DNA of 64,000 bases, taken from positions 88,040,001 to 88,104,000 of the forward strand of contig OZ024742.1 of the NCBI GenBank assembly GCA_964016885.1. Direction: 5' to 3'. The translations under genes and the position numbers were made by a program. Origin of the DNA: Eledone cirrhosa. Lineage: Eukaryota. Under the pieces are notes generated by a model. The model was not told the origin of the DNA and did not search any database. It saw only the letters and a list, made by a program, of their open reading frames with translations. Below, in pieces: positions 4,874 through 31,869 of the stretch; position 1 is the stretch's first letter; each line of letters opens with the position of its first letter.

Positions 4874-6029
4874 TGAAGATAGACATAGAATATTCGAAAA
4901 TATTCTGTATGTTTATAATAAACATTTTGAAGACCTAATCGCTATAGAATAGAATACGTCACGTATTACAATTAGATTCTCGATAAAAGCAAGGGAAGTA
5001 ACCTACGCGTTTCATTTTTATTAGAAATCTTCAGGATTACATATCCAGTGCTTTTATCGAGAATGACACAGCTAGAGACTCATAGAATACTTAGCTGTGT
5101 ACAGGAACTGGTTTGAAAGAGCGGTTGCCGGTCCGGCAGAAATTAGAAATTGGAATAAATGCTCTGAAATAGCGATATATATGTGAAGATAGACATAGAA
5201 TATTCGAAAATATTCTGTATGTTTATAATAAACATTTTGAAGACCTAATCGCTATCGAATATAATACGTCACGTATTACAATTAGATTCTCGATAAAAGC
5301 AAGGGAAGTAACCTACGCGTTTCATTCTTATTAGAAATCTTCAGGATTACATATCCAGTGCTTTTATCGAGAATGACACAGCTAGAGACTTATAGAATAC
5401 TTAGCTGTGTACAGGAACTGGTTTGAAAGAGCGGTTGCCGGTCCGGCAGCAATTAGAAATTGGAATAAATGCTCTGAAATAGCGATATATATGTGAAGAT
5501 AGACATAGAATATTCGAAAATATTCTGTATGTTTATAATAAACATTTTGAAGACCTAATCGCTATAGAATAGAATACGTCACGTATTACAATTAGATTCT
5601 CGATAAAAGCAAGGGAAGTAACCTACGCGTTTCATTCTTATTAGAAATCTTCAGGATTACATATCCAGTGCTTTTATCGAGAATGACACAGCTAGAGACT
5701 TATAGAATACTTAGCTGTGTACAGGAACTGGTTTGAAAGAGCGGTTGCCGGTCCGGCAGAAATTAGAAATTGGAATAAATGCTCTGAAATAGCGATATAT
5801 ATGTGAAGATAGACATAGAATATTCGAAAATATTCTGTATGTTTATAATAAACATGTTGAAGACCTAATCGCTATAGAATAGAATACGTCACGTATTACA
5901 ATTAGATTCTCGATAAAAGCAAGGGAAGTAACCTACGCGTTTCATTCTTATTAGAAATCTTCAGGATTACATATCCAGTGCTTTTATCGAGAATGACACA
6001 GCTAGAGACTTATAGAATACTTAGCTGTG
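4874..6029 (-). repeat. Retrozyme-like array A: 3.7 near-identical 310-bp non-coding units, one HHR per unit
   Basis: Exact 310-bp period. HHRs at 4998-5040, 5308-5350, 5618-5660 and 5928-5970. Confidence 0.9.
5308..5350 (-). ncRNA. Type I hammerhead ribozyme (representative of array A)
   Basis: GUAAUC-CUGAAGA-U-UUCU(AAUA)AGAA-U-GAAA-CGCG-UA-GGUUAC. Stem I is extended by a perfect 16-bp helix (ATTCTCGATAAAAGCA / TGCTTTTATCGAGAAT). Confidence 0.9.
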
Positions 6030-8703
6030 AATACCTTAAACTGCTTATAGACGCTACTAATTCGTTTATACGGAGAGTCAGATGGAAGGCCTACCACCTG
6101 GATAAGAACACCCGTAACCTTCCTGAACCCAAAGAGAAGTATGGCTTCAAAACATACCGAAACCCACCGCCCAACACCTTACTGGACTCCTTTGAAGAGG
6201 ACCTGCTGAAAATGATCAAAAACGTTAAGCTCAGAAAGAAACACCAATGCAGCAATCCATTCTTAACGTCCCCTGATACACTAATAACTAAGATCAAGAA
6301 TGACCCGCACCTCTTCGTCACCTCCGACAAAACCAAAAAGCTGTACAAGATGGACGCGAGTGAGTATAAAAAATTCATCTATAAGGCACTACACAAAGAC
6401 TACAAAAAAGACACCCTCTAGTACCCTAAATGACATAAATAGAGTAGGGAAGGATATAGTCACCAGCTTAGAAATAGAGAAGTACACTAACCCGTACGTC
6501 CCTCTGACGCCTAAATTCTTTCTTAAGGATCACAAATATGACTTTAATGAAAGCCCCTCTATTAGACTAATATGCCCCTCTACATCAGATATAGGTAAGA
6601 TTAGTAAAGTGATCCTTGAGAGAGTACTACTCGAGATTAATAGAAAGGCTAAGGTCTGCCTCTGGGCAACACCGACCAGGTCATAAATTGGTTCACCGAG
6701 TTGCCGGATAAAGCCACCCTGAAATTCATCCAGTTTGATATGGATAGCTACTACGCCTCTATCTCCCCCATACTCTTAAATAAGGCACTTATCTTAGCTA
6801 GATCTAACACTAGCCTCACTAAAAAAGAAATAGACATAATTCTAGCGGCACGTAGAACCATTATACAGTTCGAAGGCTCCCACTGGACCAGAACCAACCG
6901 TCCTGATAACTTCGATGTCACGATGGGGTCCAGTGACTCAGCGCAAGCAACTGACCTGGTCGGGATATACCTCCTACATAAGCTTAGGGAAGAAATACCG
7001 GCCCTACAAGGAGGTGTATATAGGGACGACGCACTGTTTACCGTTAGGAACCATAGCCCCCGTAGGATAGAGAACCTTAACAAACATATACACAGGTTCT
7101 TTATGTCATACGGCCTATCCGTAACTATGGACCTCAACCACAGGGTTGTCAACTTCCTGGACGTGACCCTCGAGTTGAGTACGGGCTTATACAAGCCATA
7201 CCATAAGCCTGGAGAGTGCCTCTCTTATATTAATTATGCCTCCAACCACCCTAAGCAGACTCTCAACTCCATAGTCTATAGTATCTCACATAGAATCTCG
7301 AGGCTATCCGCCAATGAGGACATTTTCAACCAAGCGGCTGATTACTGCAATAGGGCCCTGATAAGCGCCGGCTTTAACCGAGGAATGTCCTACATCCCTA
7401 ACGCTAGCTCTAGAAACCACCCCCTCATAAAACTAACTTTATAGTAAGCCATACCTATAACCGATCACGCGGCGACCTCGTTGAACTCGGATATATTAGA
7501 ATAGATAACCGCACCAAAGATCACGTCCCCGGCGACGGTGAAAGCTGTAGATTACTCAAAATATTCCCCTATTACAAAACCAACAAAGGCGACGGCCTAC
7601 TACCAACGCCTTCCAACCAACATCTTCGTGTACATAAACATGGAAGAGGTAGAAAGAGTGCACCCGAGCATAAAGTGAAAGGGGCACCGAACGGGCGACT
7701 GCGCATTAACACACATAAGAGCGGTCACTTAGATGGAACCACCCGTAGCAAAAGTACAAGGACACGTAATCGCCACCTTAACGTCCTATGGTTCCACCCC
7801 ACCCCCTACTCTCGGAGTGTGGCCTCCAACATACCCCGGATGTTCTTCGAAGCCTTAGAGAAGAACTTCCCGCCCAACCATAGGTATAGAAAAATTCTTA
7901 ATAGGAACAATATAAAAATATCCTTCTCTACTACTCCTAACCTAGCAGACATCATAGGAACAACGAACCACAGTAAGATCACCAAGACACAGCACCTCGA
8001 CACAGACGTACCTACACCTGACAATGACTATATCGGTCTTAACAACTCCCTGGCAGCATCCAATAGTGTAGGCAACGGCATCCGCAGACGCAACCAGAAT
8101 GACCGCGAAATGACTGGGGAACATGCAGAACATGACGTGCGGAATAACAATCGCACAACCCCGCGTGCTGTGGGTTGTAATTGTGCTAACGACAGCTCCG
8201 GTAGCGTAGGTAACAACGTAGGCAGCAACAATGATAGCCTTACCGTGGGAAATAGACGGAACCGCGACAGAAATTGCAACTGCCGCGACAGAGGACGCTG
8301 CCTCCTTAGAGGATACTGCTTGACTGATAGGGTTATATATAGATGCACTATTACTAGCCACAATAGCGTTAAACATTATATAGGGGCCACCTCCGGCCCG
8401 TTCAAAATTAGGTTTCGAACACATCTCCACTCTTTCACAAATAGAAAACTAAGGCACTCCACTTCGCTCGCGGACTATATCACATCACTAAAGGACTTAA
8501 ACATCAGCTTCTCCACGCACTGGGAGATTGTCGGCAGGGCTGCACCGTACAACTTCAAGAGGAAATGCGATCTTTGCCTCATGGAGTTCTACCACATCAT
8601 AACTGCACCCCACGAGCTCATCAACAGTAGAGCTGAAACAGCGATAAGTTGTACACATCGCTTAAAAATATCCTTCTTCAGATGGGTTATGGATGAAGAG
8701 TGA
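6030..8703 (+). pseudogene. PLE reverse transcriptase / C-terminal GIY-YIG endonuclease ORF (frameshifts and stops)
   Basis: SDKT, IQFDMDSYY (motif A), TMGSSDSAQ (motif B), YRDD (motif C), NFLDV, LWFHP, CNCRDRGRC, VIY...HYIG, CDLC. Confidence 0.9.
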
Positions 8704-30033: not shown

Positions 30034-31869
30034 TGGATGTTTATATAATGTATTTTGCAATACACTTTATGCTTAATTAAAAGCATTTTGAAGACCGTAA
30101 ACTATTGTTTTAAAGTAGTGATAAATTCACTCACTTTGATCTCAGCAAACAGGGGAGAGAGGCCGACAAGACTTGTTTCGCTTTGGTTGAAGCTTATCAA
30201 GGCCAACTGCCCCACCTGTCTACTGAGATCATTGCTGTTATATTCTTATAGAATTCTAGTAAATAATCAGGAGCTGATTATGCAGAGCGGTTGTTGGTCA
30301 GGCAGAAATTAAAAATTAGAATTGGAGCTCTGAAATAGCAATATATATATGGATGTATATATAATGCATTTTGCAATACACTTTATGCTTAATTAAAAGC
30401 ATTTTGAAGACCGTAAGCTATCGTTTTGAAGTAGTGTCAAATTCACTCACTTTGATCTCAGCAAACAGGGGAGATAAGCCGACAAGACTTGTTTCGCTTT
30501 GGTTGAAGCTTATCAAGGCCAACTATCCCACCTGTCTACTGAGATCATTGATGTTATATTCTTATAGAAATCTAGTAAATAATCAGGAGCTGATTATGCA
30601 GAGCGGTTGTTGGTCAGGCAGAAATTAAAAATTAGAATTCGCGCTCTGAAATAGCAATATTTATATGGATGCATATATAATGTATTTTGCAATACACTTT
30701 CTGCTTAATGAAAAGCATTTTGAAGACCGTAAGCTATTGTTTTAAAGTAGTGACAAATTCACTCACTTTGATCTCAGCAAACAAGGGAGATAAGCCGACA
30801 AGACTTGCTTCGCTTTGGTTGAAGCTTATCAAGGCCAACTATCCCACCTGTCTACTGAGATCATTGATGTTATATTCTTATAGAAATCTAGTAAATAATC
30901 AGGAGCTGATTATGCAGAGCGGTTGTTGGTCATGCAGAAATTAAAAATTAGAATTGGAGCTCTGAAATAGCAATATATATATGGATGTATATATAATGTA
31001 TTTTGCAATACACTTTATGCTTAATTAAAAGCATTTTGAAGACCGTAAGCTATTGTTTTAAAGTAGAGACAAATTCACTCATTTTGCTCTCAGCAAACAG
31101 GGGAAATAAGCCGACAAGACTTGTTTCGCTTTGGTTGAAGCTTATCAAGGCCAACTACTCCACCTGTGTATTGCAAAATACGTTATATATGCATCCATAT
31201 ATATATTGCTATTTCAGAGCTCCAATTCTAATTTTTAATTTCTGCCTGACCAACAACCGCTCTGCATAATCAGCTCCTGATTATTTACTAGATTTCTATA
31301 AGAATATAACATCAATGATCTCAGTAGACAGGTGGGGTAGTTGGCCTTGATAAGCTTCAACCAAAGCGAAACACGTCTTGTCGGCTTATCTCCCCTGTTT
31401 GCTGAGATCAAAGTGAGTGAATTTGTCACTACTTTAAAACGATAGCTTACGGTCTTCAAAATGCTTTTAATTAAGCATAAAGTATATTGCAAAATACATT
31501 ATATATACATCCATATATATATTGCTATTTCAGAGCTCCAACTCTAATTTTTAATTCCTGCCTGACCAACAACCTCTCTGCATAATCAGCTCCTGATTAT
31601 TTACTAGATTTCTATAAGAATATAACATCAATGATCTCAGTAGACAGGTGGGGTAGTTGGCCTTGATAAGCTTCAACCAAAGCAAAACAAGTCTTGTCGG
31701 CTTATTTCCCCTGTTTGCTGAGAGCAAAGTGAGTGAATTTGTCTCTACTTTAAAACAATAGCTTACGGTCTTCAAATTGCTTTTAATTAAGCATAAAGTG
31801 TATTGCAAAATACATTATATATACATCCATATATATATTGCTATTTCAGAGCTCCAATTCTAATTTTTA
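30034..31869. repeat. Retrozyme-like array C: 316-bp units, 3.6 forward then 2.2 inverted
   Basis: HHRs at 30161-30204, 30477-30520, 30793-30836 and 31109-31152 (-), and 31343-31386 and 31659-31702 (+). Inversion at ~31167; TA-flanked. Confidence 0.9.
30477..30520 (-). ncRNA. U3-A8 variant hammerhead with a true stem III (array C)
   Basis: GGCC-UUGAUAA-GCUU(CAACCA)AAGC-GAA-ACAA(GUC)UUGU-C-GGCU. Stem I is extended by a 16-bp helix GATCTCAGTAGACAGG / CCTGTTTGCTGAGATC. Confidence 0.82.

Follow-up and report, generated by a model that had tools for sequence, protein, structure and literature searches.

What are the tandem arrays of hammerhead-bearing repeats in a 64,000-nucleotide stretch of the Eledone cirrhosa genome (assembly GCA_964016885.1, contig OZ024742.1, positions 88,040,001 to 88,104,000 of the forward strand; hereafter the window, position 1 being its first letter), and which machinery placed them there? 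The window is AT-rich animal-type DNA, densely packed with (TA)n tracts and nested TA insertions, and it also holds coding Penelope-like elements (PLEs, numbered here from PLE1). Our analysis indicates that the repeat units are very probably non-autonomous elements mobilised by PLEs. We further consider it probable that they are non-LTR retrozymes (LTR, long terminal repeat) copied into (TA)n by the reverse transcriptase (RT)/GIY-YIG protein of a TA-targeting PLE, most likely one of the Hydra clade.

Hammerhead-bearing units and their ribozymes

An earlier reading, made from the letters alone (the sequence-only reading), had described arrays with periods of 310, 466, 524 and 316 bp and non-integer copy numbers. 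Both descriptions hold, the arrays lying at 4875-6029, 17637-20609, 21917-22997 and 30035-31868, and a second insertion of the 466 family and a short relative of the 524 family are also present:

4875..6029, minus strand: 310-bp array of 3.73 units, its 3' end abutting the TA run 4851-4874
Hammerheads of the 310 array: cores starting at 5964, 5654, 5344 and 5034; cleavage after 5934, 5624, 5314 and 5004
17637..18584, minus strand: left arm of the 466 array, 2.03 units; cores at 18384 and 17914
18585..20609, plus strand: right arm of the 466 array, 4.35 units; cores at 18873, 19339, 19805 and 20271
21917..22876, minus strand: 524 array, 1.83 units; one intact hammerhead at 22033-21964 (long stem II) and one with a mutated core
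22876..22997, plus strand: inverted arm of the 524 insertion, 0.23 units; tail sequence only (unit positions 57-180)
23021..24386, no single strand: 466 family, second insertion (identity about 87%); internal TA expanded; arms meet at 23959
30035..31167, minus strand: left arm of the 316 array, 3.59 units; U3-A8 cores at 31148, 30516 and 30200 intact, one near 30832 mutated
31168..31868, plus strand: right arm of the 316 array, 2.22 units; core at 31347 intact, one near 31663 mutated
4188..4528, no single strand: short relative of the 524 family, a 5'-truncated monomer with a hammerhead (minus) and an inverted tail arm (plus)

The same reading had counted four separate families, a count that we reduce to three because the 310 and 316 units are homologous along their whole length (63% global identity, z 13.9). 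The remaining cross-family pairs are at or near chance (z 2.4 or less), so that by sequence comparison the six insertions represent three lineages. The G+C content of the four units is 0.34-0.36. Head-to-head inversions, attributed earlier to the arrays in general, are found in the 466, 524 and 316 arrays, while the 310 array is without an inversion of its own. Similarly, all array flanks are TA runs with the exception of the 310 array, which has TA at one end only and is joined to a coding PLE at the other. These TA runs mask any target-site duplication, for which the retrozyme criterion is a length above 4 bp when present.

With a strict motif descriptor the window contained 14 hammerhead sites (5 distinct motifs), where 20 shuffled windows averaged 0.05; a relaxed descriptor gave 19 sites against 1.55. 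Each unit carries its type I hammerhead at one position, as had been proposed, but the core is intact in only 15 of the 18 ribozyme-bearing copies (4/4 for 310, 6/6 for 466, 4/6 for 316 and 1/2 for 524); in the 316 array, G12 is altered in one copy and A15.1 in another. Cleavage is predicted after UA (310 and 466), UU (524) and UC (316), as in the earlier reading. At least two consecutive complete motifs, a criterion for retrozyme units, occur in the 310, 466 and 316 arrays (in 316 at 30200 and 30516) and are absent from the 524 array with its single intact copy of two. The 524 unit therefore fits less well, and we regard it as working like a retrozyme unit without counting it as an active member. 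An Rfam search of the window gave no match at the gathering score; Hammerhead_HH9 aligned full-length and on the expected strand to the 316 (24.7 bits), 310 (17.1 bits) and 466 (18.5 bits) units, below its cut-off of 52. Sub-threshold Rfam matches to miRNA and snoRNA families arise from TA hairpins and were discarded.

Comparison of the 310 and 316 units, with stem pairs counted by coordinate, revealed covariation in the ribozyme: the C3-G8 pair of the 310 core is U3-A8 in 316, and all three stems (I, II and III) have changed sequence while remaining paired. Hammerheads that work with U3-A8, and others with a U-U first pair in stem II, have been described (PMC3088659). The 310, 316 and 466 units have in common a 6-bp stem Ia preceded by a GGRUA motif, a 4-bp stem II and a six-base loop 2, and thus appear to possess the full type I hammerhead geometry, including a putative contact between loops 1 and 2; this geometry is absent from the 524 unit. 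In the same three units stem I is predicted to extend over 22-25 bp (-25 to -42 kcal/mol), compared with -8 and -13 kcal/mol in two PLE hammerheads of the window and a minimum of -16.4 kcal/mol in 500 background pairs. The ends of a doubly cut monomer are likewise predicted to be paired, with 21-25 expected pairs against 8.5 in 524, although single shuffles sometimes equalled this. Stem III of the 310 and 466 hammerheads is weak and palindromic, and salamander motifs with such a stem III have been described to cut as dimers (PMC7229834).

Folded as circles and compared with shuffles, the units gave z-scores of -7.8 (310), -4.9 (466), -8.3 (524) and -4.6 (316), against -0.6 to +1.1 in four control stretches, in agreement with the earlier description of hairpin-rich units; the linear 310 unit gave -5.3. 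The statement that the units hold no credible open reading frame (ORF) was also upheld. A tblastn search for a PLE-like coding remnant with 120 Hydra-type PLE proteins reached a best E of 0.13 in the units and 3e-19 in the positive control, the longest ATG frame in the units (112 codons) runs antisense to 466 across its TA-rich part, and no tRNA part was found in the units. Nor does any unit match a pseudo-LTR of the coding PLEs of the window, as had been noted: across 7 coding-PLE regions we found no match beyond a single 15-nt stretch (E 0.045). Exact patterns of the 310/316 and 466 units had no hits in metagenome contigs or in viral contigs. Thus, the 310, 316 and 466 units, being non-coding, strongly folded and self-closing with full-geometry hammerheads, look like non-LTR retrozymes and, at the level of sequence, agree with every retrozyme criterion that had a clear outcome. 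With regard to size, the 310 and 316 units lie within the range of about 150-450 bp, the 466 and 524 units exceed it, and all four lie within 51-972 bp. The earlier proposal of retrozyme families consequently holds best for 310, 316 and 466 and less well for 524, with its lack of two consecutive intact motifs.

Several observations adjoin these results. The 14-15-nt stretch that matches the beginning of the 310/316 tail is found at 2506-2520, at the end of a Hydra fragment (2426-3152), and is either a chance match or a relic of template switching. At the 310 hammerhead (5940-5973), nine contigs of another organism (run X5) match the ribozyme alone and have different flanks, and would represent another family with a nearly identical ribozyme. 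A minimal hammerhead with a U3-A8 core like that of the 316 unit occurs in the pseudo-LTR and solo fragments of PLE3 (29608-29650, 24600, 51108 and 16470), and the degenerate hammerhead of PLE1 seems to have a U3-A8 core too. A self-inverted element at 60-451, its arms 87% alike, contains a minimal hammerhead at 251-223 (minus) and ends at TA. Between the 466 and 524 arrays, a 1.2-kb TA-bounded segment (20625-21810) carries a hammerhead-like motif with a non-standard core at about 20830-20890 (minus) and matches neither the units nor Hydra proteins. The element at 56303-58035 and 40575-40988, with 468-bp inverted arms, a 138-bp internal repeat and a hammerhead-like motif whose core position 4 is A, is possibly a further non-autonomous family. 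Lastly, a hammerhead-like motif near 14400 (minus) lies antisense to PLE2 within its tail (14338-14498).

Insertion ends and the candidate helper

The way in which the insertions end makes a stronger case for mobilisation by PLEs than the sequence-only reading had made. In the two-arm insertions one arm ends at a fixed unit position, X, and the other at X plus a further segment, the tail. The tail is 61 nt in the 466 array, 59 nt in the second 466 insertion, which has the same two termini as the first, and 40 nt in the 316 array; in the 524 and 4188 insertions, which share the two-arm layout, it is about 130 nt and the second arm consists of the tail alone. Tails of 92 and 127 nt were found in the coding elements PLE4 and PLE2, respectively (the degraded element 836-2499, with a value of -22 that did not fit, was left out of the comparison). 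PLE insertions have been described as marked by a microsatellite target, a tail and, at the 5' end, an inverted copy that is 5'-truncated (PMC8557442), and this layout is present in 5/5 two-arm unit insertions. For PAc, the Poseidon element of Anolis, the tail has been explained as the span between two internal RT start sites, both target strands being cut and extended (PMC11167929).

Position X lies 129 (310), 130 (316), 247 (466) and 47 nt (524) after the cleavage site and therefore insertions do not end at the cut. Of the earlier proposal, transfer into TA by a PLE is upheld by the insertion anatomy of two arms, tails and TA, which points to the Hydra clade, whereas self-cleavage, monomer circles and rolling-circle copying are putative steps. 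A linear 310 or 316 monomer primed at X would yield only about 130 nt of cDNA, and therefore the multi-unit arms need a circle or an uncut multimer as template. We also observed that in the seven measurable two-arm insertions between 4188 and 36094 (five unit insertions, PLE2 and PLE4) it is always the left arm that stops at X and the right one that goes on to X plus tail, a polarity that holds though the TA target is symmetric; PLE3 seems reversed.

The variants within the arrays bear on how the copies arose. The copies of the 310 array are 0.5% diverged, with 6 private and no shared variants, and the 466 array has 11 private and 1 shared variant, patterns that would be expected if the copies were identical on arrival. 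An alternative discussed in a 2026 preprint (bioRxiv 10.64898/2026.07.22.740005) is that a single pseudo-LTR fragment per site grew locally into a satellite by unequal crossover or slippage, and the shared variants of the 316 array could reflect such exchange between copies. We regard this as quite improbable: it leaves both the multi-unit arms on either side of the inversions and the recurrence of the same two termini in independent insertions unexplained, and the 310 array is without shared variants.

Candidate relatives of the helper were sought among the coding PLEs of the window, of which those next to the arrays are:

6030..9262, plus strand: PLE1, Hydra clade; about 19 N-terminal codons missing; three frameshifts, no in-frame stops
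8704-9262: non-coding 3' end of PLE1, up to the TA run 9263-9363; contains a degenerate hammerhead (about 9008-9038)
31945..36094, plus strand: PLE4, broken Hydra-clade element; own inverted copy (31945-32456) at its 5' end; tail of 92 nt
24427..30002, minus strand: PLE3, broken canonical PLE with a DKG motif and a CX2-5CxxC linker; has a pseudo-LTR of its own that shows no relation to the units

As far as they are preserved, motifs of the Hydra clade were found in four coding PLEs (6030-8703, 32456-34340, 43135-44186 and 46931-49300) and in the fragment 2426-3152. PLE1 has the RWK and DKT motifs, a CxCX5C linker, a C-terminal GIY-YIG domain and a (TA)n target and, judged by motifs and homologs, is a Hydra-clade PLE; the named homologs of the coding PLEs are from argonaut (37%) and bivalves (46-47%). 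No RT or GIY-YIG family of Pfam was matched among 12 ORFs, and PLE identity rests on the motifs and homologs. An assignment to the Naiads was rejected, these having an N-terminal nuclease (PMC8557442). In the same source, (TA)n is listed as the target of 26 of 27 Hydra families, many of them with a U-U base of stem II and one of them from Octopus bimaculoides.

Five PLEs were tested and all are frameshifted, truncated or interrupted by stops, so that the co-located PLEs, put forward earlier as candidate helpers, are helper relatives, not helpers. Arrays and PLEs lie together because they share the TA target. A Hydra-clade helper is nevertheless likely in our view, an assignment made because of the target, the insertion layout and the one junction considered below.

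The 310-PLE1 junction and the proposed mechanism

At one locus a unit array and a coding PLE are directly joined:

6029..6030, no strand: junction of the 310 array (minus), head-to-head, with PLE1 (plus); no TA between them; overlap of at most 1 base

The alignment of PLE1 to its homolog begins at residue 20, exactly at this junction. The 310 array is without a second arm, and a nearly full-length PLE1 occupies the place that an inverted copy usually takes, as in PLE4. Other copies of PLE1 run on upstream of 6032 with sequence readable as the missing N-terminal codons and not with the unit (3 contigs). In 5 contigs the family has a second terminus, at 9104 followed by TA, which lies 158 nt before the end of the copy in the window. 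By its termini the chimeric locus thus has the X and X-plus-tail polarity, with the array at X and PLE1 at its longer terminus.

Whether 4875-9262 records a single event, one arm having been copied from 310 RNA and the other from Hydra PLE mRNA, is in our estimate evenly balanced. The fuller version, in which a PLE complex would have copied its own mRNA and a circular 310-nt RNA, 3.7 times round, onto opposite nicked strands in one integration, is rather less probable than not. If true, the locus would physically record mobilisation of a retrozyme in trans and name the clade of the helper and its RT start sites. Only slightly less probable than the single event is an origin in separate steps, whether by a later deletion, by insertion of PLE1 with removal of an array arm or by assembly error. 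The density of nested TA insertions in the window is consistent with such a history, as is a junction unconfirmed in reads, and PLE1 could predate the array, since it carries 3 frameshifts and, in the 35 coding sites inspected (of 478 rows), no fewer than 20 substitutions specific to the window. Conversely, there is no TA at the junction, the geometry is identical to that of the inverted arm of PLE4, and the array ends at X and PLE1 at the longer of its family's two termini. In addition, PLE1 has no nonsense codon in 888, the probability of none being 0.62 at 0.5% divergence and 0.05 at 3%, which fits a low load like the array's and would allow PLE1 the same age as the 310 array.

Reads were mapped to one 310 unit and PLE1 (5720-9255) in 4 of 15 listed runs, 7 runs with shares of 0.13 or less being excluded. 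The 310 unit joins to itself in 4/4 runs and in run X5, from another organism, a contig of 340 bases joins up end to end. The summed depth, which is not a copy number, was about 530,000 for the unit, 970-1,450 for the 5' part of PLE1 and 32,000-84,000 for its 3' end in run X1; about 420, 0-4 and 9-34, respectively, in X5; and 540-940, 22-31 and up to 943 in X4. The 310 unit clearly exists apart from PLE1, and it appears to be abundant in data sets of two organisms.

These results bear on another explanation, in which coding PLEs located elsewhere in the genome have the units as their normal pseudo-LTRs, and heavily 5'-truncated copies have been stacked into arrays. Every mark of insertion seen in the units is also seen in coding PLEs, the hammerhead of 524 is similar to Hydra 3'-end motifs, and among 57 Xenopus retrozyme families 24 have matches to known elements, which are PLE ends in nearly all cases (bioRxiv 10.64898/2026.07.22.740005). 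However, past its tail each unit returns directly to the ribozyme it carries, the period being exact and no ORF intervening, the self-joint of the 310 unit recurs in every run analysed, no unit matches the coding PLEs of the window, and other PLE1 copies have coding-like sequence before 6032. We therefore consider this explanation improbable overall, rather unlikely for 524 and distinctly more so for the other units.

In the mechanism that we favour, retrozyme copying by a Hydra-clade PLE, an array would be transcribed as a multimer and cut by its hammerheads into units, as suggested by the cleavage and circles of coral, mussel and axolotl retrozymes. In the 310, 316 and 466 units the predicted stem I extension would hold the monomer ends together and favour ligation to a circle. 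The PLE protein would then nick both strands of a TA tract and prime cDNA at two fixed sites of the RNA, giving arms that end at X and at X plus tail; the arm ends are observed, and two-site priming is proposed by extension from PAc in vitro. A circular or an uncut multimeric template would let each arm pass several units and stop variably, after which the arms would join head to head; variable stops and head-to-head joining are both observed in the arrays. On the analogy with these other retrozymes, formation of circles in vivo is slightly favoured.

The same helper could also have worked without circles, by copying uncut or partly cut linear multimers of a master array, with a hammerhead that is slow, protein-assisted or dispensable. 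Though we think it the less probable course, the 316 array leans towards it. Copying without circles is in keeping with the shared haplotype of the 316 array, with the weak stem III of 310 and 466, with array ends unrelated to the cleavage site and with PAc, which uses unprocessed RNA and for which no read ends at the cleavage site (PMC11167929). It accounts poorly for a covarying ribozyme and an end-closing stem retained in non-coding units, for the star-like variants of 310 and 466, and for the circles demonstrated for similar elements in three phyla (PMC7229834).

Several further points weigh against retrozyme copying by a Hydra-clade PLE. In 524, stem I is not extended (-11.7 kcal/mol) and only one of the two ribozymes is intact, and no sequence links a unit to any of the coding-PLE regions compared. 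In the 316 array 6 of 35 variants are shared, with a three-site haplotype in segments L2 and R3 of opposite arms, which by its distribution would point to a mixed multimeric template or later conversion, unlike a single monomer circle, and non-integer copy numbers would be allowed by a circle and by an uncleaved multimer alike. For insertion in vitro PAc takes uncut RNA and can do without its hammerhead (PMC11167929), and 1 of 9 Xenopus retrozyme dimers was cleaved in vitro (bioRxiv 10.64898/2026.07.22.740005). Lastly, the 6029/6030 junction is a single locus, bridged by none of the 24 pieces inspected (of 5,051), and in run X4 the 3' end of PLE1 is as deep as the unit (up to 943 vs 940).

Two observations near the junction stand apart from this argument. 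In run X13, 98 reads that share a start connect 5808 with 6029 across opposite strands, the unit position being that of the PLE1 junction and the base of a hairpin; this could reflect a breakpoint used repeatedly, a single molecule or an edge effect. Read-end piles of the same run at 5764, 5768, 5900, 5903, 7893 and 8122 were rejected as element ends, since they coincide with AATT or CATG and are products of the restriction-site-associated DNA library. At the other end of PLE1, a short copy of its 3' end faces it tail to tail across one TA run (9136-9262 and 9365-9492), followed by four 16-bp repeats.

Relation to known elements and neighbouring features

Non-LTR retrozymes and PLEs as their proposed helpers have been published (PMC7229834; PMC7761336; PMC6155905), and the origin of retrozymes from PLEs and their mobilisation by them have been argued from co-occurrence and similarity to pseudo-LTRs (bioRxiv 10.64898/2026.07.22.740005). 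The units of the window are further members of this known kind and not a new system. Like the metazoan non-LTR retrozymes (PMC7229834), they are non-coding tandem units of a few hundred bases with a G+C content below 50%, one type I hammerhead and a self-paired fold; 310 and 466 combine a short palindromic helix III with U-U at the base of helix II as axolotl motifs do, and PLEs are suggested as helpers there too. In contrast, the Eledone arrays are short dispersed (TA)n insertions with two inverted arms and fixed tails, whereas the words 'inverted' and 'microsatellite' do not occur in the accessible text of that report; circles and cleavage are demonstrated for its retrozymes and predicted for the units of the window. 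The 2026 preprint shares the claim of a PLE origin and describes units of 51-972 bp, mostly in up to seven copies, but deals mainly with vertebrates, its 35 genomes including no mollusc, and as far as its available sections go contains no analysis of insertion ends or chimeric junction.

The Hydra clade (PMC8557442) matches the motifs of PLE1, 4, 5 and 6, the (TA)n target and the 3' hammerhead and includes a family from Octopus bimaculoides; conversely, the accessible part of that source describes no non-autonomous Hydra partners, and our units are without an ORF or similarity to the Hydra ends of the window. The MRC1/Chlamys elements of Chlamydomonas (PMC8557442) are likewise non-autonomous PLE derivatives with multicopy head-to-tail insertions, but they resemble the 3' end of their helper and belong to a clade said there to lack canonical hammerheads, unlike our units, which keep the hammerhead and have no such similarity. 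PAc (PMC11167929) resembles the present case in the two internal RT start sites that explain its tail and in the cutting of both strands of AT-rich DNA, and differs in being autonomous, of another clade, with a tail of 30-40 bp and a hammerhead dispensable for insertion in vitro.

Our literature search, with subscription journals, Repbase and Dfam outside its scope, found no report of such cephalopod arrays, of retrozymes with PLE-type ends or of a retrozyme-PLE junction. The autonomous helper of animal retrozymes has been stated to be open, the repeats carrying no revealing motif (PMC7761336). The arrays offer testable clues to this helper, namely fixed RT start positions for each family (candidates at 129/130 and 170 nt after the cleavage site for 310/316 and at 247 and 308 nt for 466), along with a definite target, the name of a helper clade and one chimeric insertion, and the 310/316 pair adds natural covarying hammerhead variants.

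Other repeats accompany the arrays and PLEs. A dispersed repeat like a short interspersed nuclear element occurs at 15918-16102, 24989-25047, 54588-54707 and 55051-55235 and is possibly akin to a cephalopod SINE. A fragment of a reverse transcriptase of the long interspersed nuclear element type (17044-17460; Pfam DUF6451, below cut-off) adjoins the 466 array. Lastly, two TA tracts of more than 1 kb (41941-43016 and 49471-50635), broken by recurring short CC units, each adjoin a Hydra PLE.

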